In this document: one piece after another, positions 8,963 to 35,483 of the stretch
Numbering within the stretch: the stretch's first letter is position 1
Layout of the letters: the number at the start of each line of letters is the position of its first letter
Assembly (NCBI GenBank): GCA_037441645.1
Contig: JBBIRU010000010.1
Coordinates: forward strand, 34,544-98,543
DNA from: Bacteroidota bacterium
GTDB taxonomy: Bacteria; Bacteroidota; Bacteroidia; Bacteroidales; GWA2-32-17
DNA length: 64,000 bases
Reading direction: 5' to 3'
The notes under the pieces: model-generated
What the model was told of the DNA's origin: nothing
The model's database searches: none
The model's input: only the letters and a program-made list of their open reading frames with translations
Translations under genes and position numbers: made by a program

Positions 8963-10750
8963 TTATTTAGATTCCCACAACTTATTATAGCCTAGTTTTT
9001 CTTCTTCTTTTTTCATTTTCATCCAGCTATCTGTTAACGCTTTTATTATTTCATGTGCCCGCGAAGCTTTGACCAGAACATCCGGTTTGAAACTGTAAAG
9101 CTGTCCATCTTTTTTGCCTTTGCCAACTTTCTCTCCGAGAGTTAACAGAGAGAGTCCTTTTCCTGAACTGAAACCATAAGAATATGTGGTAGGAGCATAT
9201 TCTGTTCCGTTAGGAGGCCCGAAAATATTATACGTTAAAGAAGGATCTAGTGTGAAGTTATACTCCCTGCTGTGTTTTGGCGCATCTGCGCCGTCCAGCG
9301 ACATTGTTAAATTCAGATCAATTGTGATAACACCGTCCACTCCGAGCTCCTGCATTAATCTTTTCTGGGGTCCTGTGTATCCTCCGAAAATAGACACAAG
9401 ATTATTTTTATAAATCTTTTTAAGTCCTTTATAAGTCCCTATATATATTTCATCCGTCAACGAATCCTGAACCTCTTTTAGATCCTGGTACGATTTGGCA
9501 TTTAACACAGTTTCAATGGGAACGAGTTCAATATTCATTTTTTCTTTCATTTGTTTTTCAAGATCTTTGTACATGGCATCGTTAATGTTTTGCCAATATT
9601 CTACCGGTAATTCGGGGAATTGAATTTTAAAACAATTCTTATAAGTGGTCCATGTATCGGTAATCCAGTCACCTGAAACCTCTGTTTTATGAACAGTCTG
9701 ATAAGTTTCAGTTGTTTTTGTAAGTTGTGTAGCACGGGTAGTAAATGATATTACAGCCATTTTCCGGGCTTTTACGAAAGGGATTCCATCCATCATATTC
9801 AGTTTCATAACATTTACTCCAGGCAAATAAGGCTCATCCTTTTCGCTTCCGGGCATACGGCCAATCTGAATTCCGTTTTCGTTTTCGGTAATATCATAAC
9901 CATCTTCTTTTCTGGTATCTTTGGCCGGAAACCATTCTGCCTTTTGAATATTTGCTTTTATCGGAGCAGTAGCATAATAACAAGATATATTTCTTACTTC
10001 GCAAACTCCTTCTGTTTTTTCAGGATTCACAGTAAATCGTTCAACTAATATATGGGAATCACCTTTTACATAATCAAATTTATTGTCGTGACCGGAAGCA
10101 AAAGCAAAGGCCGGAATATGTATTTCATTTGCCGAACGAAAATAATTAATGGTATGCCACGAATATTGTGTTAAAGTAGGTTTAGAATATAGGGCAACCA
10201 TAATCTGTGTATTTTCACTGCCTGCCGGATTCTTTAATTTAACTGTCATATCTTTTTTTGTATCTACTTCACTGTTTTTAGGTTCCAGTATCTCCACAGC
10301 AGCCACCGGTTTTACCGTTATCTCCATTTTTTCACCGGTACTTGTTTGAACATTTATAGTTTTGGGCTGATTATCTTTAACTTTAATTGCATATAAACCA
10401 TTGCCCATATATGGCATATCCTGCCCGTTGACTTTTACTGTTCCGTCGATTTCATATGAACCCACTCCTTTAGCTTTATAAAATGTTATTGACACAATAT
10501 TTGCACCTTCTTCCCAGATATCTGAAAGATACAATTCTTCACCCGTTGCAATTTTAAGTGCAGGCGAATAGCAATTACCCCAATATCTGGCCGTAACAGA
10601 AGCATCTTTTAACGAGGATGTTTTCTCGGTTCCAATAGAACTTAAACTCTTTGCTAATTTTTTTAAAAAACTTTGTGCGTTTAATGTATTATAATTATTT
10701 ACAGTTAAAAGAATCAATACTAATACAAAAACACTCATCTGCTTTTTCAT
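8963..10750 (-). CDS. Secreted protein of unknown function
   Basis: The ATG at 10750 gives MKKQMSVFVLVLILLTVNNYNTLNAQ, a signal peptide. The track start at 10759 is TTG. I recognise no family motif. Confidence 0.6.
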   Translation of the reverse strand: MKKQMSVFVLVLILLTVNNYNTLNAQSFLKKLAKSLSSIGTEKTSSLKDASVTARYWGNCYSPALKIATGEELYLSDIWEEGANIVSITFYKAKGVGSYEIDGTVKVNGQDMPYMGNGLYAIKVKDNQPKTINVQTSTGEKMEITVKPVAAVEILEPKNSEVDTKKDMTVKLKNPAGSENTQIMVALYSKPTLTQYSWHTINYFRSANEIHIPAFAFASGHDNKFDYVKGDSHILVERFTVNPEKTEGVCEVRNISCYYATAPIKANIQKAEWFPAKDTRKEDGYDITENENGIQIGRMPGSEKDEPYLPGVNVMKLNMMDGIPFVKARKMAVISFTTRATQLTKTTETYQTVHKTEVSGDWITDTWTTYKNCFKIQFPELPVEYWQNINDAMYKDLEKQMKEKMNIELVPIETVLNAKSYQDLKEVQDSLTDEIYIGTYKGLKKIYKNNLVSIFGGYTGPQKRLMQELGVDGVITIDLNLTMSLDGADAPKHSREYNFTLDPSLTYNIFGPPNGTEYAPTTYSYGFSSGKGLSLLTLGEKVGKGKKDGQLYSFKPDVLVKASRAHEIIKALTDSWMKMKKEEEKLGYNKLWESK

Positions 10751-10940
10751 AGTAGCCAATTTTAGTGATAATTAGGTTTTTAATTAATTAAACACCCAAA
10801 ACTAATACATTGCATCTATATATGTAAATATTTTAACATATAAATTTTTCTAATAACTTAGAGGTTTTCAGAACTAAGAAAGAGAGTACACAAAAACTTT
10901 AAATTCAGATAATTTAAATAAATTTTCGTCTAACTGCTTA

Positions 10941-11938: not shown

Positions 11939-13687
11939 TTACCTTAACACCTTTCTTGCAAAAGCAACAGTAAAATAAGCCATCATAAACACGCCTATGA
12001 ATCCTTCTACACCTGCAACAAGGCGCAATATTCCAACAGGAGAGCAATCTCCGTAACCAATGGTTAAATATGTAATTGCACTATAATATGCCATATCCCA
12101 GAATCTTATCCATAAATTTGCATCGGGAGGTGTACAATTAATGGATGTATTCAGAAATAATGTTAACCCAAACTGAATAAAGACAAGTGCAAAAAAAGTT
12201 ACAACAACACTCACCAGCACACGCATAGGTGAAGTGGCATACAATCCCATTTTATCAAAAACCCAGAGTTTAAACCAATAGGCAGGATAATGCCAGATTA
12301 CCGATACCTTATTTTCTTTTATTCCATCCTGAAGTATAGCTTTTGATTCGTTTCTTTTAAATTCGATATAGGCTAAATCTTCATCATCGTATCTCCCGGT
12401 AACATTAAAATTCTGTTTTAGTGTCCGGAACTGTTCGGCTTTCATCCAGAAATCCGATTTCTCCTGTGAATAAATAAGTTTTTTAACTCCATTGGCCCGC
12501 CAGTCCATATAAATTCTTCCAAGTAAACGCATACCTGTCAGGCTCAACACCTTAACTTTAATCTCGAAATCATGCGGAGTCAGGTCAATAATATCACGAA
12601 CAACCGTATCGCTTAAATCGAGAAGACTGGCTTGCTCAACCCTTAAATCAAAATAATTATTAAGCTGACATGATTTTAATGAAAGAGTGTGAAATTTTGA
12701 ATTGTAAAATGAAACAACCCCCTCGCCAAATAAAGCTCTTTCAAAGGAAACATCGGTATTAGGGAACTGGGCTTCATTAAAACTAAAATCGCCGTTTCCT
12801 ATATTTGCATTTTTAAAAGACAGTTTTCCTTCCACCATTTCCGACTCGTCAAAAGAGATATCACCGTCATTAAAAACAGCCCTGTTGAAGTTGATTTTGC
12901 CTTTACCGAATTCAACCGTTCTGAAATCGACTTTACCGGTGCCAAATTCTGCCCGCTCGAATGAAATATCACCTTCGGCAAAGGTGGCGAAATGAAAATC
13001 AATCTTACCATTACCTATAACAGCCACTTTGAACGACACTTCGCCATTTCCGAAATTGGCATTGATAAAGGAAATATCTCCGTTGTTAAAGGAAGTATTG
13101 GCAAACAACACATCGCCATTTCCGAAATAGGCATATTGAAAATCTTTAAAGCCCTGCCCTATGATTGCATTTTTAAAATTCAGTCCGTCGTGTCCGAAAT
13201 TTACATTGCTGAAATTCAGGTTTCCGTTAGTGAAAATACAAGAGTTAAAATTCACTTTCCCTTCATCAAACACAGATGAGGCAAAGGTTACTCCCCCATG
13301 TATAAACGCTGTATTCTGAAAACTGACCGGTTTTTCGCTGAAAGATGCAAAAGAAAAATCGGTTATTTCTACAGAATCAAAGATAGAATTTTTTGCGCTG
13401 AAAGATTTAATTATAACCATATCCTCGGCGGCAAGGTTATTCATTGCACGATATTTTGCCAATGAAAATTCTTCAATATAACAATTGTCAAGATTAACTT
13501 TCTCTTCCTTCTGAATCATTTCATAAATGCGGTTTGCGTCCACATAGCCTAATTCTATATAAAAAAGTTCTTTCTTATTTTTATCAAAGAATGAAATGGC
13601 CGCTGTATGAGAAAGAGTGTTACCTCCCGGGGTTACAAATTCGTTGTCCCTGATTTTAACTTTATAGGATGAAAACTCCGAAATCAT
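11939..13687 (-). CDS. Pentapeptide-repeat domain fused to a 2-TM potassium-channel pore
   Basis: Residues about 100-340 form a continuous pentapeptide/decapeptide repeat (for example ISFINANFGNGEVSFKVAVIGNGKIDFHFATFAEGDISFERAEFGTGKVDFRTVEFGKGKINF). The C-terminus has TM1 (VLVSVVVTFFALVFIQFGLTLF), a pore helix with the selectivity filter YLTIGYGD, and TM2 (LVAGVEGFIGVFMMAYFTVAF). Confidence 0.8.
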   Translation of the reverse strand: MISEFSSYKVKIRDNEFVTPGGNTLSHTAAISFFDKNKKELFYIELGYVDANRIYEMIQKEEKVNLDNCYIEEFSLAKYRAMNNLAAEDMVIIKSFSAKNSIFDSVEITDFSFASFSEKPVSFQNTAFIHGGVTFASSVFDEGKVNFNSCIFTNGNLNFSNVNFGHDGLNFKNAIIGQGFKDFQYAYFGNGDVLFANTSFNNGDISFINANFGNGEVSFKVAVIGNGKIDFHFATFAEGDISFERAEFGTGKVDFRTVEFGKGKINFNRAVFNDGDISFDESEMVEGKLSFKNANIGNGDFSFNEAQFPNTDVSFERALFGEGVVSFYNSKFHTLSLKSCQLNNYFDLRVEQASLLDLSDTVVRDIIDLTPHDFEIKVKVLSLTGMRLLGRIYMDWRANGVKKLIYSQEKSDFWMKAEQFRTLKQNFNVTGRYDDEDLAYIEFKRNESKAILQDGIKENKVSVIWHYPAYWFKLWVFDKMGLYATSPMRVLVSVVVTFFALVFIQFGLTLFLNTSINCTPPDANLWIRFWDMAYYSAITYLTIGYGDCSPVGILRLVAGVEGFIGVFMMAYFTVAFARKVLR

Positions 13688-25342: not shown

Positions 25343-27103
25343 TTAGTAAAGATAAATATCGTAAGGCATTCTGGCCAATACTCCATTCAGGCCGGTCAGA
25401 TTCTGCATTGTTTTAAAATATTTGTAAGCGGGTCCGAGTTCTTTCTGCAAATAGGTTGTTGATGCATTTTCTTTCATTTCTTTCATAATCTGGTCAAAAA
25501 ACGGAAGTTTTTCCGGCATCTCAATAATTCTGACCTGATCGGCTCCTACTTTTTCTTTGGCAATTTCAATAGCTCTTACCAAACCACCAAACTCATCAAT
25601 CAAACCGATTTTTTTTGCATTATCGCCACTCCACACACGGCCCTGCCCTATGCTGTCGACATTAGCTTTCTCAATACCTCTTCCATCGGCAACATGCCCA
25701 AGAAACACATCGTAAATTTCTTCAACACCTTGCTGAATGACAGCTTTTTCTCCCCTGGTCATGGGCCTGAACATAGAGCCGATACCTGCGCTTGCATTGG
25801 TTTTAACTCCATCAAAAGTAATTCCCAGTTTGTCGTTAAAAAGTTTCTGTGCATTCATCATCAGGCCAAAAACCCCGATGGAGCCGGTTATGGTAGTATG
25901 ATCGGCAACAATAACACTGGCCGGGCAGGAAATATAATATCCTCCGGAGGCAGCAACATCACCCATACTTACAATAACAGGCTTTACTTTTTTTGTAAGC
26001 ATTACTTCTCTCCAAATAACTTCTGAAGCTAACGCACTACCACCCGGACTGTTAACTCTTAACACAATGGCTTTTATCGAACTGTCCTCACGGGCTTTTC
26101 TTATTGTCTCAGATAATCCTTCTGATCCTATAGAGGCATCATCGCCCTGGCCCATTCCAATTTCACCGGTGGCGTAAATCAACGCTATTTTACTTTTTTT
26201 ACCTTTTTTGGTATTTACTGCCACTTTCCTATAGTTCTTCATTTCTACAAAACCCAGTTTTTTTCCTTTTGGAAGAGATACCAGGGAATGCAACTCATCT
26301 ATAATTTCGTCATAATATTTTAAGCCGTCTACCAGTCCCAGTTGCTGCGACATTATTGCATTCTTAACAAGCATACTGTCAGCCATTAAATTAAGACTAT
26401 CGATGCTTATCTTCCTTTCTTCGGAAATTCCTTTTAACAGGTAATTCCAGATTGAGCCTACATAAGTCAATGTCTGTTCTTTATTTTCAGAACTCATTTT
26501 ATCGAGAATAAAAGGCTCAACGGCGCTTTTGAATTTTCCATGACGGATTACTTCAGGTTCTACTCCTAATTTCTCAAGAGCTCCTTTAAAAAACATAACT
26601 TCCGATTCAAGTCCTTTAAATTCAACTGTTCCCTGTGGATTTAAATAAATTTTATCAGCAGCAGTCGATAAATAATATGCACCCTGTGTATAGTAATCAT
26701 TATAAGCAATAATAAATTTTCCTGATTTCCGGAAATCCAGAAGAGCATCACGTATCTCTTCAATTGTTGCAGGACTTGATTGCAGATCGGGAATATCCAT
26801 AAATATTCCTTTGATATTCTGGTCTTCTTTTGCTTTTCTTATATTTCTTAAAATGTCATTCAATCCCAGGTTAATATTTGCTTTAAACGAACCAAAATTC
26901 ATATTTTCAAAAGGATTATCCGACGTACGTTCGGTTATCGGGTAATCCAGCCTGATATGTAAAATTGATGAAGGTTCAATTTTAACTTCATCTTCCTTGC
27001 CGGAAATTGAAGCAACAATCATTAAAAAGACAAAAAAGAGGATAACATTAACTACTATTATTCCCAAGATTGTCGCAAAAAAATATTTAAAAAATTCTTT
27101 CAT
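25343..27103 (-). CDS. sppA: Signal peptide peptidase SppA (67K type)
   Basis: 586 aa with an N-terminal TM helix and two ClpP/S49 repeats (NSPGGSALASE, GDVAASGGYYIS). Confidence 0.88.
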   Translation of the reverse strand: MKEFFKYFFATILGIIVVNVILFFVFLMIVASISGKEDEVKIEPSSILHIRLDYPITERTSDNPFENMNFGSFKANINLGLNDILRNIRKAKEDQNIKGIFMDIPDLQSSPATIEEIRDALLDFRKSGKFIIAYNDYYTQGAYYLSTAADKIYLNPQGTVEFKGLESEVMFFKGALEKLGVEPEVIRHGKFKSAVEPFILDKMSSENKEQTLTYVGSIWNYLLKGISEERKISIDSLNLMADSMLVKNAIMSQQLGLVDGLKYYDEIIDELHSLVSLPKGKKLGFVEMKNYRKVAVNTKKGKKSKIALIYATGEIGMGQGDDASIGSEGLSETIRKAREDSSIKAIVLRVNSPGGSALASEVIWREVMLTKKVKPVIVSMGDVAASGGYYISCPASVIVADHTTITGSIGVFGLMMNAQKLFNDKLGITFDGVKTNASAGIGSMFRPMTRGEKAVIQQGVEEIYDVFLGHVADGRGIEKANVDSIGQGRVWSGDNAKKIGLIDEFGGLVRAIEIAKEKVGADQVRIIEMPEKLPFFDQIMKEMKENASTTYLQKELGPAYKYFKTMQNLTGLNGVLARMPYDIYLY

Positions 27104-27193: not shown

Positions 27194-27925
27194 TTAAAAT
27201 AATTTAAGAATTTTTCCGGAAAAGTGATTCCCGGTATCCGGGTTAAGTGATATAAAATACAAGCCGGAATCCAGGCTTTTCATATCTATAACAGGTTCTG
27301 GTTCCGTTATTCTTTTATTAAACAACAAAGCTCCGCTTTGAGAATAGAATGAAACAACAGCAGGTAATTCAACAGGTAAAAAATTTATTTTTAAAACAGA
27401 CTCATCCATTGAGTAATAAAATTTAGCCTGTGAATGTGCTGTATTATCTGAAACCCCAGAAACCGGACATGAAACATCATTTTGCTGAATGGATTCAACC
27501 GGAACCTGTTTCATAAAACGATTCGGACAGATAGCGATATATTGAGGAGCATAAGTAACTCCATAATCGTTAACAACTGAATTATTATATTGAGTACTGA
27601 AAGAAGGAAAAGTAGCAGGAAACTGATTATAAAAAGCATGAATTGCCGAATCGGAAACCCCGTTTATTTCTATACTCCAAACCCATACAGAATCACCATT
27701 ATATCCATGTTCCTGCCAGAAATTCTCAAGAATGGAAGTATTAACCTGGCAGGTTCCGCAATTAGTAATAAAAAAATCAAGAATCACTGTTTTTCCAAAA
27801 TCAAGCTCTGTGTACAGGTTTCTGGTAACACCGTCAATATCTGTTAATGTAAAATCGGGTGCTGGGTTCTGTGCCCGGCTATTAAAAAGAAATGAAAAAA
27901 AATATATTAATATCAGATATTTCAT
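27194..27925 (-). CDS. TlpA/redoxin-like thiol-disulfide oxidoreductase with a T9SS C-terminal sorting domain
   Basis: Signal peptide, APDFTLTDIDG...GKTVILDFFITNCGTCQ (redoxin CxxC), and a C-terminal GLYFISLNPDTGNHFSGKILKLF T9SS-type tail. Confidence 0.7.
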   Translation of the reverse strand: MKYLILIYFFSFLFNSRAQNPAPDFTLTDIDGVTRNLYTELDFGKTVILDFFITNCGTCQVNTSILENFWQEHGYNGDSVWVWSIEINGVSDSAIHAFYNQFPATFPSFSTQYNNSVVNDYGVTYAPQYIAICPNRFMKQVPVESIQQNDVSCPVSGVSDNTAHSQAKFYYSMDESVLKINFLPVELPAVVSFYSQSGALLFNKRITEPEPVIDMKSLDSGLYFISLNPDTGNHFSGKILKLF

Positions 27926-28002
27926 AATTCGAAATTAATACTTTTCTTTTTAAAAAATTTATTATTTTTGAACACAAAATTTTTATTTCAAACTTATTGT
28001 TT

Positions 28003-28827
28003 ATGAGAATAAAACATATTAAACTGCTATTAATAAGCGGTATTACGGTCATAATGTTTTCTTGCAATGATTCAACTCCTCCCGTTGAAAATGTTTTGGA
28101 AGATTCTACTTCCATGGAAAACGAAACCGAACTAATTAAAAATACGGTTAAAATTCCTTCGCCCATTGAGCTTTACACTTTTATGTATGATGCCAATGCA
28201 AAGTTTGGTAAGGAAAACCTTAATTCAGTTGATAACCGTAGTAAATACAATACTAATCAGAAAAAAGCCTTAAACCTTGGGGTTTATGCCTCTGATTTAG
28301 GTTATTGCACTGTTTTTAAACAAAATAAAGAAACCTTTTCCTATTTTTCTGTAACAAAGAAAATGGCCGATGAAATGGGGCTCACAGAAGGATTTGATGA
28401 GAAAATTGTTAAGCGAATTGATCAAAACATGAGTAACAGCGATTCATTGTACCAGATCAGTAACGATTCATACAGTACAGCTGTTCGTTTCCTGGAACAA
28501 CAGGGACAAGGAAATTTACTTCCCCTGATGATAACAGGTGCCTGGGTTGAGAGTGTTAACATTGCCATAAAATCTGTAGAAAAATTCAACTCCGACAATG
28601 AAATTGTTTTGAGAATTGCAGACCAGGGTTTACTTCTTGAAAATTTACTCGAAATGTATACTTCTCTCGACGAAGCTGATAAACAAACCGATATTTACAA
28701 TAAACTTCTTGATTTGCAGCAATCTTTCGATAAACTATATGACAACACTGATGTTATAATTACCAAACACCAGTTCGACGAAATATCATCAAAAATAAAA
28801 TTAATCAGGGCAGAAATTATTGGTTAA
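28003..28827 (+). CDS. Lipoprotein of unknown function
   Basis: The ATG at 28003 gives MRIKHIKLLLISGITVIMFSCNDS, which has a lipobox. The track start at 27997 is TTG. The mature part looks helical and I recognise no motif. Confidence 0.55.
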   Translation: MRIKHIKLLLISGITVIMFSCNDSTPPVENVLEDSTSMENETELIKNTVKIPSPIELYTFMYDANAKFGKENLNSVDNRSKYNTNQKKALNLGVYASDLGYCTVFKQNKETFSYFSVTKKMADEMGLTEGFDEKIVKRIDQNMSNSDSLYQISNDSYSTAVRFLEQQGQGNLLPLMITGAWVESVNIAIKSVEKFNSDNEIVLRIADQGLLLENLLEMYTSLDEADKQTDIYNKLLDLQQSFDKLYDNTDVIITKHQFDEISSKIKLIRAEIIG

Positions 28828-28843
28828 TAAAAAAGATTAAGTC

Positions 28844-29500
28844 ATGAAATCAGAAAAAATAATAAGAAAAGGCATAGTAACCTTTGCAATAACAATATCC
28901 GGAATTTTTTCATTTTTAAATTCCGGTGCACAATGTGAAAAAAAAGATTTTTGCAGCGATGACTGGCGGGACGATTATGATTTCAGAAGCCAGTCTTCTT
29001 TTGCTAAACTATCGCCGGGAGATACATCGAGTGTTTCTGTAGTTCTTTATGGGAATCAGAAATACCGTATTTTCGTTTGTGCTGACGAAAAGCTCGGTGG
29101 CGTTACATGGAAAATTGTTAATCCTGAAAGAAAAACCAAACGTACCATACAAAGTATCAAAAAAGATACATTGGTCATCTATAAAACAAATGAAAACGGT
29201 GATTATATAACTGATGACCTCGGAAACCCGATTGTTAAAAGTAAAAATGTAAATATTGATACATTATGGGCAACCGAAAGGATTTCTGTCGATAAGGTAA
29301 TGTTTGACAGCAAAAAAAGTTCCGATAAACCTTATTTAGATGTTGTTCCCAAGAAAAGTGAAAGATATATTGTAAGAGTTACTGTCCCTGGAGGAGATCC
29401 AAATATAGCAGGGTGTGTAAATGTTTATGTGGGAAGAATTCCTGTAGGTTCAAAAAGCTTTAACAGGGGTGGAAACAATAAATCGGGCGATACTTATTAA
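28844..29500 (+). CDS. Secreted protein of unknown function
   Basis: 218 aa with an N-terminal hydrophobic signal (VTFAITISGIFSFLNSGAQC). It starts 16 nt after the previous gene and is followed by a strong terminator. Confidence 0.55.
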   Translation: MKSEKIIRKGIVTFAITISGIFSFLNSGAQCEKKDFCSDDWRDDYDFRSQSSFAKLSPGDTSSVSVVLYGNQKYRIFVCADEKLGGVTWKIVNPERKTKRTIQSIKKDTLVIYKTNENGDYITDDLGNPIVKSKNVNIDTLWATERISVDKVMFDSKKSSDKPYLDVVPKKSERYIVRVTVPGGDPNIAGCVNVYVGRIPVGSKSFNRGGNNKSGDTY

Positions 29501-29513
29501 GTATTAAAAAAAT

Positions 29514-29549
29514 TAAAAAAACCTCAAAGAAAAACTTTGAGGTTTTTTT
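29514..29549 (+). terminator. Rho-independent terminator
   Basis: aaaaaaacctcaaag-aaaaa-ctttgaggttttttt has a 9-bp stem (acctcaaag/ctttgaggt) flanked by A and T runs. Confidence 0.8.
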
Positions 29550-29606
29550 ATCTTAATTTTATACACTTTTTACATAATTCTGTAACTTTTTTGAATCTAT
29601 AGTATC

Positions 29607-29640: not shown

Positions 29641-29895
29641 ATGAACCTTAAAAAGAAAATTGCTGTTAGCGAAACCGGTTTTATTTTCGACCCCACAACA
29701 GGCGATTCATTTTCATTAAATCCTGTTGCCGCTGAAATTCTTACATTATTAAAAGAAGGAAAAAAAGAAGATGAAATAAAAAAATATTTTCTGAAGGAGT
29801 ACGATGTCGATGAACCCACTTTTGACCGCAGTTATCTTGATTTTGTGGCGATGCTCCGGCTCTATAATATGATAGAAGAAAATGAAAAAAACTAA
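29641..29895 (+). CDS. PqqD-family small protein (RiPP-recognition-element-like)
   Basis: 84 aa. GFIFDPTTGDSFSLNPVAAEILTLLKEGKKEDEIKKYFLKEYDVDEPTFDRSYLDFVAMLRLYNMI follows the PqqD pattern: a beta-strand, LNxxAxxIxxLL, a charged helix, Y-V, then DhxxFhxxL. The C-terminal tail is acidic (EENEKN). Confidence 0.7.
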   Translation: MNLKKKIAVSETGFIFDPTTGDSFSLNPVAAEILTLLKEGKKEDEIKKYFLKEYDVDEPTFDRSYLDFVAMLRLYNMIEENEKN

Positions 29896-30928
29896 AATAA
29901 CAGTTGCCGTTTCAGGCTTAAATAATACCGATAATCCCGGACCGGGAGTACCCGTAATCAGGGCTCTTCGTGAATCCGATATTTTCGATGTCAGAATAAT
30001 CGGGCTGGCTTACGAAAATCTGGAACCGGGTATTTACATGCACGATGTGGTAGATAAAGTTTACCAGGTACCCTATCCTTCCATCGGGAGTGATAAATTA
30101 CTGCAACGGTTAGCCTATATTCATTCCGTTGAAAATCTGAATGTACTCATTCCCAACTTTGACGCGGAATTATACTCTTTCATTTCTTTTGAGAATAAAC
30201 TTAACAAGATGGGAATCGCTACGTGGTTACCAACCATGGAACAATTCGAGGAAAGGCATAAAACAAAGCTTCCGGAATACGGTAAAAAATACGAGGTACT
30301 TGTTCCCAGGAGCAAACCAATAACAAATGTCACCGAAATTGCCGGACTGGCAAATGAATTCAGTTATCCCCTGCTTGTCAAAGGAAAATTTTATGACGCT
30401 TATGTTGCTTTTAATCCCGAACAGGTTGCTTTGTATTTTAATAAAATTGCAACAAAGTGGGGAGTTCCCATTATTATACAGGAATTTATCAGGGGAACTG
30501 AGGTAAATGTAATTGCTCTCGGCGACGGAAAAGGAAATACCGTAGGCGCTGTTCCCATGCGCAAACAATATATCACCGATAAAGGGAAAGCCTGGGGTGG
30601 AATAACTCTCGATGACCAGGATATGCTCAAGCTGACACACAAAATCATAAAAAAAACAAAGTGGCGTGGAGGAATGGAGCTTGAACTCATTAAAACAATT
30701 GACAGTAAATATTATCTTATCGAAATCAATCCAAGAATTCCTGCATGGGTTTACCTGGCTGTAGGGGCCGGACAAAATCTTCCCGAAGCGCTGGTAAAAC
30801 TGGCTATGGGTAAAAAAGTTAAGCCCTTTACCTCGTACGAAACAGGTAAAATGTTTATCCGTTATTCCTGGGATATGATTGTTGACTTAAAGGAATTCGA
30901 AAAACTATCCACCTTCGGTGAACTTTAA
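29882..30928 (+). CDS. ATP-grasp family ligase
   Basis: 348 aa. YPLLVKGKFYDAY (ATP-binding Lys), IIQEFIRGTE (hinge) and YLIEINPRIPAW (Mg/ATP E-x-N). The start overlaps the PqqD-like ORF by 14 nt. Confidence 0.8.
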   Translation: MKKTKITVAVSGLNNTDNPGPGVPVIRALRESDIFDVRIIGLAYENLEPGIYMHDVVDKVYQVPYPSIGSDKLLQRLAYIHSVENLNVLIPNFDAELYSFISFENKLNKMGIATWLPTMEQFEERHKTKLPEYGKKYEVLVPRSKPITNVTEIAGLANEFSYPLLVKGKFYDAYVAFNPEQVALYFNKIATKWGVPIIIQEFIRGTEVNVIALGDGKGNTVGAVPMRKQYITDKGKAWGGITLDDQDMLKLTHKIIKKTKWRGGMELELIKTIDSKYYLIEINPRIPAWVYLAVGAGQNLPEALVKLAMGKKVKPFTSYETGKMFIRYSWDMIVDLKEFEKLSTFGEL

Positions 30929-30969: not shown

Positions 30970-32331
30970 ATGGAAAAGAAACGCTTTGAAAGACCGATTA
31001 TCAAAAAACTTCAGACCGGAATGCCCAATAAATTCGGAATGAAAACCGAATATGAACCCATTACTGAGATTGACGGAGTATCTGTAAAGGATTTAATTTC
31101 CAAACATGGAAGCCCGCTGTATATTATTTCTGAAAATACCATCCGCGATACTTATCATGAGGCTCACAGGGCTTTCAGTACGCGCTATCCCAAAGTTCAG
31201 TTTGCATGGTCGTATAAAACCAACTACATGAATGCTGTATGTAATGTTTTTCATACAGAGGGTTCGTGGGCAGAAGTAGTTTCGGGTTTTGAATACGATA
31301 AAGCCATCACAAATAAAGTTCCCGGGTCTAAAATTTTATTCAACGGGCCTGATAAAAGCGTGGAGGATCTTAAAAAAGCCATAAAAAACGGTTCGTATAT
31401 TCATATTGATCATTTTGATGAACTTTATACCATTATTGAGCTAACCAACAAAATGACCGAAAGGCCTAAAGTTGCCATCAGGGTGAACATGGATACCGGT
31501 ATTTATCCGCAATGGACACGCTTCGGGTTTAACTACGAAAACGGTGAAGCATGGGAAGCCATTAACCGCATTATTATTACTAAAAAGATTGATCTGGTTG
31601 GATTGCATTGCCATATCGGAACTTATATTTTAGCTCCCTGGGCTTATGGTACCGCAGCTGCAAAACTGGCTGATCTCGCTTCTGCCATAGATAAAAAATT
31701 CAAGCAACAGATAAAATATATTGATATGGGAGGCGGTTTTGCTTCCAAAAATACATTAAAAGGCGCATATCTTCCCGGCTCCGACACCTGCCCTACTTTC
31801 GATCAGTATGCAGATGCCATAACAACTGCTTTAATCAACAGCCAGATCAGTCCCGAACATTTGCCGGTTCTTATCCTGGAAACCGGGCGGGCCTTGATCG
31901 ATGATGCAGGGTTCCTGGCAGGAACCGTACTGGCAAACAAACGGCTCCCCGAGGGAAAACTGGCAACCATTATCGACATTGGTGTTAACCTGCTGTTCAC
32001 CTCTTTCTGGTACGATCATAAAATTACCCCTGCCCAGCCCTTCAGCCATCATACCGAAGATGCCATTATTTATGGTCCACTTTGTATGAACATTGATGTG
32101 ATCCGTGAATCTGTTCAGCTGCCCCCGATGAAAAAAGGGGACAATATTGTTATCAGCCGCATCGGGGCTTATAACATGACACAATGGATGCAGTTCATCA
32201 CACTTCGCCCAAATATTGTTATGATAGATAAAAACAGTAAGGTTCATGTAATCCGCGGAAACGAAACAGCCGGAATGATTTCAGAAAATGAAAACGTTCC
32301 CGCCCACCTTGCTAAATTTGACTTAAATTAG
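30970..32331 (+). CDS. Fold-type III PLP-dependent decarboxylase (Orn/DAP/Arg decarboxylase family), substrate unknown
   Basis: WSYKTNY (PLP lysine), HCHIGT, DMGGGF, ETGRAL, GPLCMNID (catalytic Cys region, diverged from CESGD) and GAYNM. Confidence 0.8.
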   Translation: MEKKRFERPIIKKLQTGMPNKFGMKTEYEPITEIDGVSVKDLISKHGSPLYIISENTIRDTYHEAHRAFSTRYPKVQFAWSYKTNYMNAVCNVFHTEGSWAEVVSGFEYDKAITNKVPGSKILFNGPDKSVEDLKKAIKNGSYIHIDHFDELYTIIELTNKMTERPKVAIRVNMDTGIYPQWTRFGFNYENGEAWEAINRIIITKKIDLVGLHCHIGTYILAPWAYGTAAAKLADLASAIDKKFKQQIKYIDMGGGFASKNTLKGAYLPGSDTCPTFDQYADAITTALINSQISPEHLPVLILETGRALIDDAGFLAGTVLANKRLPEGKLATIIDIGVNLLFTSFWYDHKITPAQPFSHHTEDAIIYGPLCMNIDVIRESVQLPPMKKGDNIVISRIGAYNMTQWMQFITLRPNIVMIDKNSKVHVIRGNETAGMISENENVPAHLAKFDLN

Positions 32332-32334
32332 TTT

Positions 32335-34533
32335 GTGAAAATCAGGCAAACAATAACTATAATATTAAAGGGGGCAGTATTCAGCTATCCCCAGATTTTT
32401 TTTTCACAAAGTAAAATTTTTGCCGCTTTTTTAATACTCATTACCTTTCTCGACCCTTTTATAGGTATCGGCGGATTGGTATGTATTCTGGCTGCCAATA
32501 CTGCCGCTTATTTCATCGGGTTGAACGAACATAAAATTTCAAGCGGTCTTTATGGTTTCAATGCCCTCCTTGCCGGGCTGGGAATTGCTTCCTTTTTTGA
32601 ACCGACATGGGAATTATACACGGTAATCGTTTTTTCCGGACTGTTTTCATTATTTGTTACAGTAGTATTCGAAGGAATTATCGGAAAGTATTACCTGCCC
32701 TTTTTAAGCATCCCCTTCCTTGTATCCTTATGGACGGTACTTCTTGCATCGGGTGAATTTAATGCCATCGGTATTTCGGAAAGAGGTGTTTACTTCCTGA
32801 ACGATTTATACAGCCTGGGAGGAACAACGCTTGTTAATTTCTATCACACCTGTAACGGGATAGCCATTCCTCTTTCGTTAAAATCATATTTCTTATCGCT
32901 CGGGGCTATTTTTTTCCAGGATAATGTTCTTGCAGGAATTCTTATATCTGCCGGGCTGCTTATATTCTCAAGAATAGCGTTCACCCTGTCACTCCTGGGA
33001 TATTATTCCGCTTTTTTCTTTTATTTGTTAATAGGAAGCGATATAACACAGGCTACATACTCTCATATCGGGTTTAACTTTATTCTTACCTCCATCGCGA
33101 TTGGCGGATTTTTCATGATCCCTTCAAGAAATTCGTACCTGTGGGCAATCCTTATAATCCCCATTACCTCGCTTATTACCATTGGGGCAGGCAGGATATT
33201 GGGAACCTGGTTCCTTTCGGTTTACTCATTACCTTTTAATATAGTTGTGCTGGTCTTTATATATACTCTCCGGTTCAGGGTACGTTTTCATAAATTTCTG
33301 ACCGAAGTGCCTGTTCAACAATTCATGCCCGAAAGAAACCTGTATAATTACGTTGTATCCGTTAACCGGTTCAGTAAAAGCTTCTCTACTTTTCCCATAA
33401 AACTACCTTTCTGGGGTGAATGGTTTGTGGAGCAAGGGCACAACGGGGAAATAACGCATAAAGAAGAATGGCAGCATGCCTGGGATTTCACCATTCATAA
33501 CAACGAAAATAAAACCTATAATACCCAGGGGGTTTCGGTTGAGAATTATTTATGCTACAATAAGGCAGTGGTAGCTCCCGCCTACGGAACAGTTGAAGAA
33601 GTTATTGATGGCATTCACGACAACAACATAAAGGAGGTTAACCTGAACAGCAACTGGGGAAATACCGTTGTAATAAAACATGCCGATTTCCTGTACTCCA
33701 AACTCTGCCACCTGAAACCGGGCAGCATTAAAGTTCAGAAAGGCGATTATGTAAAACCCGGACAAATTATTGCGGCTGTAGGAAACAGCGGACGTTCGCC
33801 CGAACCACATTTACATTTTCAACTCCAGGCCACTCCTTTTATCGGCTCAAAAACACTGAATTACCCCATCAGTCACTTTATTTCGAAAAAAAACAACCAG
33901 CTACTGTTTGAGTCTTTCGGAACTCCGAAACAAAGTACAGTAGTTTCGAATATTGAAATAAATCCCCTGATTAAAAAAGCATTTACCTTTATTCCCGGAC
34001 AAAAATTTTCCATTTCGGTAAATGAAAACGGGAAAGAAAAAAATATTAAATGGGAAGTTGTTACCGATATTTATAACAGTACATACATTTACTGCCACGA
34101 ATCGAAATCAGCTGCATACCTGTTTAACGACGGAACCATTCACTTCTTTAAGCACTTTGCAGGCGACAAATCATCTCTTTTATATTATTTTTATTTAGGA
34201 TGTTATAAAATAGCCCTGGGTTTCTATAAAAACCTGGAACTGGAAGATGAGTACTCTTTGTCCGAAATCTTCAGTTTACCTTCCCTGGTTTTACAGGACT
34301 TTGCAGCACCTTTTTTCCTGTTCATGAAAACGAGCTATAAAACCCGGTATTCGTATATAGATGACATGATAAACCCATTGCACATTACTATAAATTCCAC
34401 GGCAAAAACAATGATCACAAACAATGAAACCAACCGGATCGATTTCACACTTGAGATAGGCTCATCCGGGCTTGGAATATTTGAAGTAAATTCTAAAAAA
34501 AGAAAAATAAGAGCAGTCATTGTTGAATCTTAA
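32335..34533 (+). CDS. Polytopic membrane protein: urea-transporter-like (UT) domain fused to an M23/LytM-type metallopeptidase domain and an uncharacterised C-terminal domain
   Basis: A GTG start lies 3 nt after the upstream stop. The N-terminal roughly 320 aa have about 10 hydrophobic helices, with KGAVFSYPQIFFSQ and SSGLYGFNALLAGLG resembling UT-family signatures. The middle region has THKEEWQHAWDF ... GNSGRSPEPHLHFQL (M23 HxH motif). The last roughly 240 aa show no recognisable motif. Confidence 0.65.
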   Translation: MKIRQTITIILKGAVFSYPQIFFSQSKIFAAFLILITFLDPFIGIGGLVCILAANTAAYFIGLNEHKISSGLYGFNALLAGLGIASFFEPTWELYTVIVFSGLFSLFVTVVFEGIIGKYYLPFLSIPFLVSLWTVLLASGEFNAIGISERGVYFLNDLYSLGGTTLVNFYHTCNGIAIPLSLKSYFLSLGAIFFQDNVLAGILISAGLLIFSRIAFTLSLLGYYSAFFFYLLIGSDITQATYSHIGFNFILTSIAIGGFFMIPSRNSYLWAILIIPITSLITIGAGRILGTWFLSVYSLPFNIVVLVFIYTLRFRVRFHKFLTEVPVQQFMPERNLYNYVVSVNRFSKSFSTFPIKLPFWGEWFVEQGHNGEITHKEEWQHAWDFTIHNNENKTYNTQGVSVENYLCYNKAVVAPAYGTVEEVIDGIHDNNIKEVNLNSNWGNTVVIKHADFLYSKLCHLKPGSIKVQKGDYVKPGQIIAAVGNSGRSPEPHLHFQLQATPFIGSKTLNYPISHFISKKNNQLLFESFGTPKQSTVVSNIEINPLIKKAFTFIPGQKFSISVNENGKEKNIKWEVVTDIYNSTYIYCHESKSAAYLFNDGTIHFFKHFAGDKSSLLYYFYLGCYKIALGFYKNLELEDEYSLSEIFSLPSLVLQDFAAPFFLFMKTSYKTRYSYIDDMINPLHITINSTAKTMITNNETNRIDFTLEIGSSGLGIFEVNSKKRKIRAVIVES

Positions 34534-34543
34534 ATAAGAATAT

Positions 34544-35158
34544 ATGAAACAGATAACATTAATTTTTGTGTCCCTTTTATTTCCGGCACTCCTTTTAGCA
34601 CAGGAAAATGTGGATAATGTTTTAAAAGCATTCAGCCAGAGTTATACCAACGAAACCAAAGGCGATTATACCAATGCCATTAAAGATATAGTTGCCGTTT
34701 ATTCGGCCGATTCGTATGAACAGAATGTACGTCTGGGCTGGTTAAGTTACGAAGCCGGAAAATTTACTGAATCGGTTGCCTATTACGAAAAAGCGCTGGC
34801 TTTAAAACCCATGAGCGAAGAAGCCCGCATGGGCATTGTGTATCCTGCCTCGGCTCTCGGCAACTGGGACCAGGTTTTAAACCAGTATTTAAAAATACTC
34901 GAAAATAATCCCGGAAACACAACGGTAAATTACAGGATTGGCAACATTTATTACGAAAGAAAAGATTATGCTAAAGCTTTCACCTATTTCGAAAAGGTGG
35001 TAAATCTGTATCCTTTCGGTTACGATGCTTTGCTCATGTATGCCTGGACAAACCTTAAACTGGGTAAAAACCGCGAGGCCAATGTACTGTTTAATAAAAT
35101 CCTGATGCTCTCACCTAACGATACTTCTGCACTGGAAGGGTTGGGATTGATCAAGTAA
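34544..35158 (+). CDS. Secreted TPR-repeat protein
   Basis: Signal peptide MKQITLIFVSLLFPALLLAQ, with TPR-like units (AVAYYEKALALKP, YAKAFTYFEKVVNLYP). It starts 10 nt after the previous gene. Confidence 0.7.
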   Translation: MKQITLIFVSLLFPALLLAQENVDNVLKAFSQSYTNETKGDYTNAIKDIVAVYSADSYEQNVRLGWLSYEAGKFTESVAYYEKALALKPMSEEARMGIVYPASALGNWDQVLNQYLKILENNPGNTTVNYRIGNIYYERKDYAKAFTYFEKVVNLYPFGYDALLMYAWTNLKLGKNREANVLFNKILMLSPNDTSALEGLGLIK

Positions 35159-35202
35159 TGTTTTCATATTTATCTCTACCGTTTTAAGTTATTAAAAAAA
35201 TA

Positions 35203-35442
35203 CACTTTTGTCCGACTAAAATATTTTACATATCACGAATCAACCTGTTTTCCATATTTACAAATATTTCGCCGCCTACGGGGCTTTATTTTGAATCTTT
35301 TATTTTTCTACAAATATGTCGCCTCTACGAGGCTTAAAAAAGTGCTATAGGCACGATATATTTGTAACGCAAGTGGTTACAAAAAATAGAAAAAGTGCCG
35401 TAGGTACGACATATAATTATAAAAATTAGTCGGACAAAAGTG
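35203..35442. mobile_element. MITE-like nested palindromic repeat element (non-coding)
   Basis: Perfect 17-bp terminal inverted repeats: cacttttgtccgactaa (35203-35219) and ttagtcggacaaaagtg (35426-35442). Inside are two direct copies of tacaaatatNtcgcc..tacg.ggc (35259-35284, 35309-35333), followed by two copies in inverse orientation (35342-35366, 35395-35420). The outer flanks are A-run and T-run. Confidence 0.6.
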
Positions 35443-35483
35443 ATTTTTTTATTAATTTGGTCAGATGGAATGCCCTGATAATC

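Follow-up and report, generated by a model that had tools for sequence, protein, structure and literature searches.

A urea-transporter-type channel domain fused to a most likely active, predicted cytoplasmic M23 peptidase domain in a conserved six-gene operon

Proteins of the UT family are known as passive urea pores, and M23 enzymes are known as extracellular cutters of the cell wall. Both families are united in one chain by a gene at positions 32335-34533 of the window, the whole 64,000-nucleotide stretch of Bacteroidota DNA analysed here. Its product is called UT-M23-CTD, after its UT channel domain, its M23 domain and its C-terminal domain (CTD). It is bound to an operon, and its peptidase is apparently active and predicted to face the cytoplasm. 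A relative is encoded in at least 562 species genomes (scan with one genome per species). The combination is unexpected for the UT and M23 families alike and is directly testable.

The UT+M23 architecture was found in one paper, which assigns no function to it, and the literature search gave nothing about the operon. In that paper, a 2026 survey of how UTs evolved, M23 is among the modules C-terminal to bacterial UT domains, with UniProt A0A399T3G1 as the example, and no analysis of function, topology or context is given for this pair (PMC12998343). The architecture itself is already known. The zinc motif of the H-x8-D type, the predicted cytoplasmic location, the apparently exclusive coupling of the M23 and C-terminal domains to a UT domain, and the conserved six-gene operon, which probably spans the envelope, are new. 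In databases, the proteins are labelled 'urea transporter' or 'urea transporter/murein DD-endopeptidase MepM/murein hydrolase activator NlpD'.

The gene is divided as follows.
32335..34533, + strand: whole UT-M23-CTD gene, a listed open reading frame with GTG start, 732 amino acids (aa) plus stop.
32335..33273, + strand: UT-family channel domain, residues 1-313, two five-helix inverted repeats.
33274..33414, + strand: juxtamembrane linker, predicted cytoplasmic, residues 314-360, K/R-rich with a helix at 332-351.
33415..33849, + strand: M23 metallopeptidase domain, residues 361-505, delimited by Pfam, Foldseek and conservation.
33850..34530, + strand: C-terminal domain, residues 506-732, mostly beta strand with a few short helices.

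The start codon lies 3 bp past the stop codon of the decarboxylase gene, and homologues begin with MKIK... at the same position as the GTG-initiated protein. Therefore, the annotated start is correct. A preliminary description of this DNA, made from its letters alone, had read the product as a UT-like channel joined to an M23 domain and a C-terminal domain of no known family, and had quoted the strings FSYPQIFFSQ, SGLYGFNALLAGLG, THKEEWQHAWDF and SPEPHLHFQLQ. All four are present in the translation of 32335..34533, and the three-part reading was borne out by the profile searches. In the hidden Markov model check, the N-terminal domain scored as UT (Pfam PF03253, residues 17-311, E 1.3e-57, 195.6 bits against a cut-off of 25, profile positions 7-290 of 292). 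Peptidase_M23 (PF01551) matched residues 409-498 with an E of 1.6e-16 (60.7 bits against a cut-off of 28.7). No Pfam family was matched by the C-terminal 228 residues, even at E<=10.

The phylogenetic distribution, which the preliminary description had proposed to survey, is wide. Among 5.8 billion proteins searched, over 100 full-length relatives of 716-753 aa and 45-83% identity were recovered, all with UT and M23 domains. The best 80 relatives belong to Bacteroidota (Bacteroidales, Cyclobacteriaceae, Saprospiraceae, Chitinophagales), Ignavibacteriota and Balneolota, and their neighbouring genes are conserved as an operon. It had been cautioned that a sequencing frameshift might have joined two genes. 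The probability of such an artefact, by frameshift or by misassembly, is negligible, and nothing was found in its favour. The gene is a single uninterrupted frame, and an identical architecture of about 720-750 aa is found in hundreds of independent assemblies of three phyla. The recurrence of this architecture in over 100 proteins (45-83% identical) and in no fewer than 562 species genomes excludes a frameshift or chimera.

The M23 and C-terminal domains (residues 321-732) were also used as a query against 1.84 billion cluster representatives, and 553 matches were obtained at E<=1e-30. Among the best 150 of these 553, 99 begin in the first 40 residues of the UT domain. The others begin inside or just after it, are colinear and look like truncated gene calls; no foreign N-terminal domain was found on the module in the same 150. 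Stand-alone proteins of this module or other fusions were considered and rejected, since the shorter matches are colinear, begin in or just after the last UT helix and look like fragments. Thus, the module appears from these alignments to exist only joined to the UT domain of UT-M23-CTD proteins, and UT-M23-CTD is, as judged from its homologues, a genuine three-module inner-membrane protein.

The UT domain carries the signature motifs of its family, namely both GFN motifs (F75/N76 and F247/N248), LPxLSxPF and SLPFN. In a phmmer search, residues 20-338 were colinear with dvUT of D. vulgaris (3K3F/3ME1, E 4e-18), and mammalian UT-A and UT-B were also aligned. The filter residues were mapped by the phmmer alignment to dvUT and the residue list of PMC4357013.
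Central (Sm) filter: L84/T130/L247/T294 of dvUT are L79/S125/L251/S298 in UT-M23-CTD.
Outer (So) filter: E187/V188/F190/L293 of dvUT are A191/I192/F194/Y297 in UT-M23-CTD.
Inner (Si) filter: Q24/V25/F80/L129 of dvUT are Q20/I21/F75/L124 in UT-M23-CTD.

The filter positions and both GFN motifs are invariant or almost so among 73 homologues. In 101 diverse representatives, N248 is kept in 101, F194 in 98 and N76 in 95, and position 125 is S or T in 94. Because these residues are kept in both sets, the pore looks like a working UT pore with serine in place of both central threonines, which is a conservative change. The domain scored 119.7 bits with the Yut equivalog profile (NCBIfam TIGR03441), far under its cut-off of 274.6. 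Therefore, it represents a subfamily distinct from Yut. No conserved link to urease or other urea genes was found in neighbourhoods of +/-10 kb.

A functional pore would also suit a different explanation. UT-M23-CTD may be an ordinary channel for urea or small amides whose gating or flux sensing is done by cytoplasmic M23 and C-terminal domains, or whose solute regulates the peptidase, with the operon enzymes linked only metabolically. We consider such a regulated channel or sensor unlikely. It is favoured by the pore-lining residues, which are conserved as in functional UTs, and by the fusions of UT domains to EF-hand and ankyrin modules, which look regulatory (PMC12998343). The lack of any conserved urease or urea-metabolism gene nearby speaks against it, as do the catalytic residues and the partner genes treated below.

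In dvUT and UT-B, the T5a-Pb loop between the inverted UT repeats is periplasmic (PMC4357013). With inverted repeats and a periplasmic loop joining them, a UT domain has both its termini on the cytoplasmic side. The distribution of charge in the 73 homologues follows the same pattern. K and R are concentrated at the N-terminus (mean 2.9), in the loops 62-71 and 117-125, and in residues 314-335 after the last helix (mean 3.6). The loops 38-40, 88-91 and 234-244 have practically no K or R, and acidic residues outnumber basic ones in the loop 142-179 that joins the repeats (1.6 K+R against 3.3 D+E). The juxtamembrane linker carries a PE(K/R)NLY motif common to the C-terminal tail of dvUT, and the predicted model has no hydrophobic helix beyond residue 313. 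From UT homology and charge bias, the M23 and C-terminal domains are predicted to lie in the cytoplasm under the membrane. This prediction answers the question, raised in the preliminary description, of which side of the membrane the peptidase faces.

The predicted cytoplasmic location argues against the database label 'MepM/NlpD murein hydrolase'. If that label were right, a UT-like membrane domain would serve UT-M23-CTD as the anchor of a murein endopeptidase or an amidase activator in the periplasm. The source annotations say so, and sub-threshold NCBIfam matches to Pgp3, MepM, ShyA, DipM, NlpD and EnvC, which span the C-terminal half of the M23 domain, point the same way. However, all of these scores are far under the equivalog cut-offs of their families (at best 44.6 bits against 300, and 34.4 bits against 341), the topology of UT structures and the positive-inside charge bias place the M23 domain in the cytoplasm, and no extra transmembrane helix follows the UT domain. 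A periplasmic hydrolase is therefore very improbable. It is contradicted by the data, as is the artefact, and the automatic label 'murein DD-endopeptidase MepM/NlpD' is probably misleading.

The M23 fold was recognised by Foldseek, in which the model matched DipM, ShyA, Csd1/Csd2, EnpA and lysostaphin (E 1e-6 to 1e-5, probability 1.0, 150-175 columns). Sequence and profile alignments to the solved M23 enzymes cover the C-terminal half only, and a profile search of the N-terminal half against the Protein Data Bank (PDB) gave generic M23 matches only. H459 (in xHL) and H492/H494 (in PHLHF) align with the catalytic and zinc histidines of the solved enzymes, so the HxH motif and the additional catalytic histidine of the family are present. 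T374, H375, D384, W441-G442-N443, H459, S485-G486, H492 and H494 are each kept in all of the 101 diverse representatives. The codons of the predicted catalytic set were verified.
33457-33459, + strand: H375.
33484-33486, + strand: D384.
33709-33711, + strand: H459.
33808-33810, + strand: H492.
33814-33816, + strand: H494.

The preliminary description had doubted that the first zinc-ligand motif has the canonical spacing, and had named the histidines of THK and QHAWD as candidates. The first point held. The canonical HxxxD is absent from the M23 domain, and an invariant pair spaced H-x8-D is present instead. In an hhalign alignment, the aspartate of lysostaphin falls opposite position 404, which is N here and D in 87 of the 101 representatives, and no histidine lies four residues before 404. 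As for the two candidates, the histidine of THK (H375) stood with 101/101, and that of QHAWD (H381) was rejected because it is kept in 34/101 only and is otherwise Y, K or F. Since H375 and D384 are both kept in 101/101, the first zinc motif is assigned to H375-x8-D384 on conservation. An insertion of 24 residues (387-410) follows D384. A longer H...D spacing is also known from M23A enzymes of the LasA type; an alignment to an approximate LasA sequence covered the C-terminal half of the M23 domain only.

Catalytic competence had been called uncertain for the same reason, and here the result went the other way. The alignment check of the zinc ligands showed that none is lost: H375, D384, H459, H492 and H494 are all present and invariant. 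Degenerate regulatory LytM domains, such as those of EnvC and NlpD, usually lose their zinc ligands. A catalytic set of five residues that is intact and invariant over three phyla is the opposite of such a domain, and the M23 domain is most likely an active metallopeptidase. The same contrast counts against a regulated channel, in which a ligand-free domain of the EnvC or NlpD kind would usually be expected.

The C-terminal domain was modelled alone by AlphaFold 2 (AF2) with an alignment of 73 sequences. This structure prediction, which the preliminary description had recommended, gave a beta-rich model with a pLDDT (predicted local distance difference test) of 92.7. Foldseek of the model against the PDB returned a weak likeness to half-barrels of the LolA or lipocalin type (best E 2.5e-3, template-modelling (TM) score about 0.3). 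The likeness to ligand-binding half-barrels, weak as it is, suits a regulated channel. A triad of C587, H607 and D638, which looks conserved in close homologues, was rejected, since only 58/101 keep C587 and diverse members mostly have D, S or N at position 607. Among the 101 diverse representatives, this domain showed no conserved catalytic residues. From its conservation pattern, it is taken to belong to a family not described so far, with a role in binding or scaffolding rather than in catalysis.

The gene cluster was defined by tblastn and clustering of open reading frames (ORFs) over 80 fetched loci, which are the best 80 of at least 562.
29641..29895, + strand: PqqD-family protein (RiPP-recognition-element type), 84 aa, first operon gene, 14-bp overlap with the ATP-grasp gene; about 85 aa in 57 loci.
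29882..30928, + strand: ATP-grasp amide ligase, 348 aa, carbamoyl-phosphate-synthase-like PRK12767 type; about 349 aa in 62 loci.
30970..32331, + strand: fold-III decarboxylase dependent on pyridoxal phosphate (PLP), 453 aa, Pfam Orn_Arg_deC_N and Orn_DAP_Arg_deC; about 452 aa in 69 loci.
32335..34533, + strand: UT-M23-CTD gene; about 734 aa in 75-80 loci.
455-aa protein gene of other genomes: about 455 aa in 66 loci.
34544..35158, + strand: secreted TPR protein, 204 aa, N-terminal signal peptide, last conserved operon gene; about 208 aa in 66 loci.

The genes stand on one strand in the order PqqD-like, ATP-grasp, decarboxylase, UT-M23-CTD, usually the 455-aa protein, and the small secreted TPR protein. 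The median intergenic gaps in that order are -17, 36, 14, -6 and -13 bp, and absences of cluster genes are mostly at contig ends. UT-M23-CTD thus belongs to a tight six-gene operon conserved over three phyla. An operon with a ligase and a decarboxylase had been proposed earlier, and both enzymes were recovered by Pfam and NCBIfam matches at 29882-30928 and 30970-32331. A regulated channel would give no reason why UT-M23-CTD is so strictly linked to a chaperone, a ligase and a decarboxylase.

The PqqD assignment is given by Pfam (PqqD, E 2.1e-11), and the NCBIfam matches to PqqD-type chaperones are weak. The PqqD fold binds peptide substrates in peptide-maturation systems. Clusters for peptides that are made on the ribosome and modified after translation (RiPPs) have a protein of the RiPP-recognition-element (RRE) or PqqD family beside a modifying enzyme, and such a protein is found here, overlapping the ATP-grasp gene (57 loci). 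A role as a LysW-type carrier was rejected, because the tail is acidic and its terminal residues are not conserved. The ATP-grasp protein is a distant carbamoyl-phosphate-synthase-like enzyme; its profile search against the PDB gave carbamoyl-phosphate synthetase matches only.

The nearest solved relative of the decarboxylase is the N-citrylornithine decarboxylase FslC (PDB 7KH2, E 5.4e-58), against 9e-40 for the best diaminopimelate (DAP) decarboxylase, and the next relatives include BtrK, the decarboxylase of glutamate on an acyl carrier protein (ACP). In NCBIfam, it scored 227 bits with FslC (cut-off 500) and 211 bits with lysA. The substrates of these relatives are N-citrylornithine, glutamate tethered to the acyl carrier protein BtrI, and diaminopimelate, from which the alpha-carboxylate is removed. 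What the relatives have in common is that they decarboxylate the head group of an amino acid attached through its side chain to a larger moiety.

The same enzymes might remodel cell-wall precursors in the cytoplasm, in the style of a vancomycin-resistance cassette. The ATP-grasp enzyme would extend the stem peptide, the decarboxylase would act on the free D-centre of peptide-bound meso-DAP, and the M23 domain would trim D-amino-acid precursors. M23 peptidases and VanX-type enzymes share a common active-site architecture. All three enzyme families have members in stem-peptide chemistry, the M23 relatives are murein endopeptidases, and the ATP-grasp protein has a weak NCBIfam match to pseudomurein-type Ddl (E 1.7e-6) beside the lysA score of the decarboxylase. 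In 7-8 loci, the cluster lies downstream of PBP2-like (621 aa) and RodA-like (419 aa) genes, judged by sequence alone. However, that linkage is limited to a few related genomes, FslC (E 5e-58) is clearly a nearer relative of the decarboxylase than is any DAP decarboxylase (at best 9e-40), and the PqqD-type chaperone, the UT channel and the TPR and barrel proteins would have no role. Remodelling of this kind is quite improbable.

In other genomes, the 455-aa protein begins with a signal peptide and TPR repeats, and its C-terminal part is polar, beta-rich and rich in aromatic residues. It ends in W-K-[F/L] (F in 31/66, L in 25/66) and has no long hydrophobic run. No sequence family matched its C-terminal part, and its profile against the PDB gave TPR matches only. 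From these features, it is likely an outer-membrane barrel. Its gene lies between the UT-M23-CTD gene and the small TPR gene in 66/66 loci that reach that far (e.g. 9370-10806 in locus L001 and 12172-13503 in locus L008). The small TPR protein has a faint TPR_Slam match and a sub-threshold PgaA match. Thus, the system has components in the cytoplasm, in the inner membrane and in the periplasm, and probably also in the outer membrane.

Two variants of the cluster were observed. Protein P0208 (1305 aa, from a high-GC relative) holds UT-M23-CTD and a TPR/barrel protein of the 455-aa type in one ORF with an internal signal-peptide-like stretch. It is probably a read-through gene call, yet it confirms the adjacency of both proteins outside the low-GC lineages. 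Four loci have an additional gene, of about 305-318 aa, between those of the decarboxylase and UT-M23-CTD (L022 9036-9953, L029 9031-9939, L048 7339-8295, L056 9032-9979). The copy of L022 matches the IF-2B family (PF01008, eIF-2B or methylthioribose-1-phosphate isomerase type), and the other three are homologous by eye. This insertion may hint at a link to the recycling of S-adenosylmethionine (SAM) or polyamine by-products.

For the whole system, we propose that a small product, built on a peptide or carrier, is cleaved and released and then leaves through the UT pore. A rough probability of 40% is given to this tentative model. At first, the PqqD-like chaperone would present the peptide or carrier. 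Second, the ATP-grasp enzyme would join an amino acid to it via the side chain of the amino acid, as a side-chain amide. Third, the decarboxylase would strip the free alpha-carboxylate. Fourth, the M23 domain would cut the product or the leader at the cytoplasmic mouth of the channel. Finally, a small neutral amide or amine would exit by the UT pore towards the TPR and barrel proteins. We infer all five steps, including that a product rather than the cell wall is cut. The combined processing-and-transport or sensing role suggested in the preliminary description would agree with this anatomy. A wider reading is doubtful, with a chance still to be reckoned with: in an unrecognised envelope-spanning pathway of Bacteroidota, Ignavibacteriota and Balneolota, an RRE-guided ATP-grasp ligase and a decarboxylase would build, on a peptide or carrier, a small amine or amide, possibly a thin and unbranched amide chain, which the cytoplasmic M23 domain would free and the UT pore would pass directly to the TPR/barrel protein.

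Several points weigh against the release model. The UT pore passes only very small planar solutes; it is narrow, and a product exported by this route would have to be minute or shaped like a thread. The AF2 model of the UT domain superposes poorly on solved UTs (Foldseek TM about 0.4, root-mean-square deviation about 18 Å), and therefore the UT assignment rests on sequence and not on the model. No precursor peptide was recognised, as neither the intergenic gaps nor the flanking 1.5 kb on each side hold a conserved short ORF; a precursor might be encoded elsewhere. For this search, ORFs of 18-75 aa from those flanks were clustered and 450 bp upstream were inspected, which yielded only shadow ORFs of an AraC-type gene and a DNA motif. 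The ATP-grasp enzyme and the decarboxylase are 61-89% identical across phyla (over 63 loci for the ATP-grasp enzyme), which is more like core metabolism than typical enzymes of peptide natural products. In addition, the 455-aa gene is absent in the window, where a gap of 10 bp (34534-34543) takes its place, and also in the 83%-identical contig L081; no copy was found elsewhere in the 64 kb.

The boundaries of the operon were inspected as well.
29514..29550, + strand: terminator-like hairpin with a 16-bp stem, which closes an upstream 218-aa gene and forms the 5' operon boundary.
29560..29586, + strand: direct repeat in tandem, made of the half-sites AATTTTATACA and AATTCTGTAAC with their starts 21 bp apart; it precedes the PqqD-like gene by about 55-80 bp.

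No convincing same-strand terminator was found inside the operon in the window. In 13/52 loci, the 250 bp upstream of the PqqD-like gene contain the repeat motif; of background windows of that length, 0.3% do. An AraC-type regulator probably uses it as an operator. A regulator of this type (about 197 aa, with an N-terminal HMA-like domain carrying M-x-C-x-C-C) flanks the cluster in 24 loci and is not present in the window. Rfam gave no riboswitch or other RNA near the cluster in the window and three loci. In L008, a SAM synthetase gene that lies some kb upstream of the cluster is preceded by a SAM-II riboswitch (4520-4579, 74 bits), which is probably unrelated to the cluster. A PADLOC search for anti-phage defence returned no matches except one generic TPR.

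Just upstream of the operon, at 27997-29500 of the window, a 276-aa protein with a lipoprotein-type signal and a secreted 218-aa protein are encoded, and neither has a significant Pfam or NCBIfam match. Both genes are kept in position in L001; L081 shows only the 218-aa-sized gene complete, its contig ending just upstream. These genes are probably outside the operon because a strong terminator lies between. Further upstream, a Redoxin/AhpC-TSA thioredoxin-fold protein (27194-27925, - strand), which carries a weak C-terminal sorting domain of type-IX secretion, adjoins the signal peptide peptidase SppA (25343-27103, - strand), in keeping with the origin of the window from Bacteroidota. Downstream of the TPR gene, positions 35186-35458 hold inverted-repeat arms of 25 nt (92% complementary) around about 206 bp, and this interior contains two pairs of direct repeats of 25-26 nt. 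The stretch looks like a small element of the MITE (miniature inverted-repeat transposable element) or REP (repetitive extragenic palindromic) kind.

If the release model is true, serving as the exit route of a biosynthetic product would be a new job for the UT fold, and M23 peptidases would gain a new cellular compartment and a new zinc-motif spacing. The product would be a strongly conserved metabolite or envelope component of environmental Bacteroidota. On the wider reading, the UT fold would have been recruited as a dedicated exporter, and an M23 peptidase as an intracellular maturation protease.

UT-M23-CTD shares with dvUT and Yut (SLC14) a full-length two-repeat UT domain, the GFN motifs, the LP-box motifs and counterparts of most of the listed filter residues. 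It differs from them in S125 and S298, which replace the central threonines, in having A for E187 and Y for L293, in its extension of 420 residues, which is predicted to be cytoplasmic, and in the lack of urease-gene linkage. With lysostaphin, LytM, ShyA, DipM and EnpA, it has in common the M23 fold, GxSGxSxxPHLHF with its HxH, the catalytic histidine in xHL and an invariant zinc aspartate and histidine. Unlike these enzymes, it has H-x8-D in place of HxxxD, the 24-residue insertion and a predicted cytoplasmic rather than extracytoplasmic site. The 455-aa partner is comparable to Slam and to PgaA, BcsC and PelB, in which TPR repeats go with an outer-membrane barrel in synthase-dependent secretion; the shared features are the signal peptide, the TPR repeats at the N-terminus and the beta-rich part behind them, with its W-K-[F/L] end. 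However, its barrel nature is presumed, it has no family match and it is absent from the window.

Parallels of the proposed pathway are the BtrI/J/K/G and LysW/LysX/LysK systems and the peptidase-containing ABC exporters. In BtrI/BtrJ/BtrK (butirosin), LysW/LysX/LysK and FslA/FslC (rhizoferrin), as in the UT-M23 operon, a small partner, an ATP-grasp enzyme, a fold-III PLP decarboxylase and a releasing metallohydrolase come together. However, the partner in the UT-M23 operon is of the PqqD/RRE type, neither an ACP nor LysW, and its C-terminus is not conserved; the ligase is not an NIS synthetase, and the hydrolase is an M23 domain fused to a channel. The peptidase-containing ABC transporters, with a C39 protease and an exporter, likewise join a cytoplasmic peptidase to a membrane conduit in a peptide-modification operon. 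UT-M23-CTD has neither C39 nor ABC domains nor an ATPase, and its UT pore is far too narrow for a peptide. The parallel is a functional analogy and not homology, in which UT-M23-CTD would couple cleavage to exit through a conduit of another fold.

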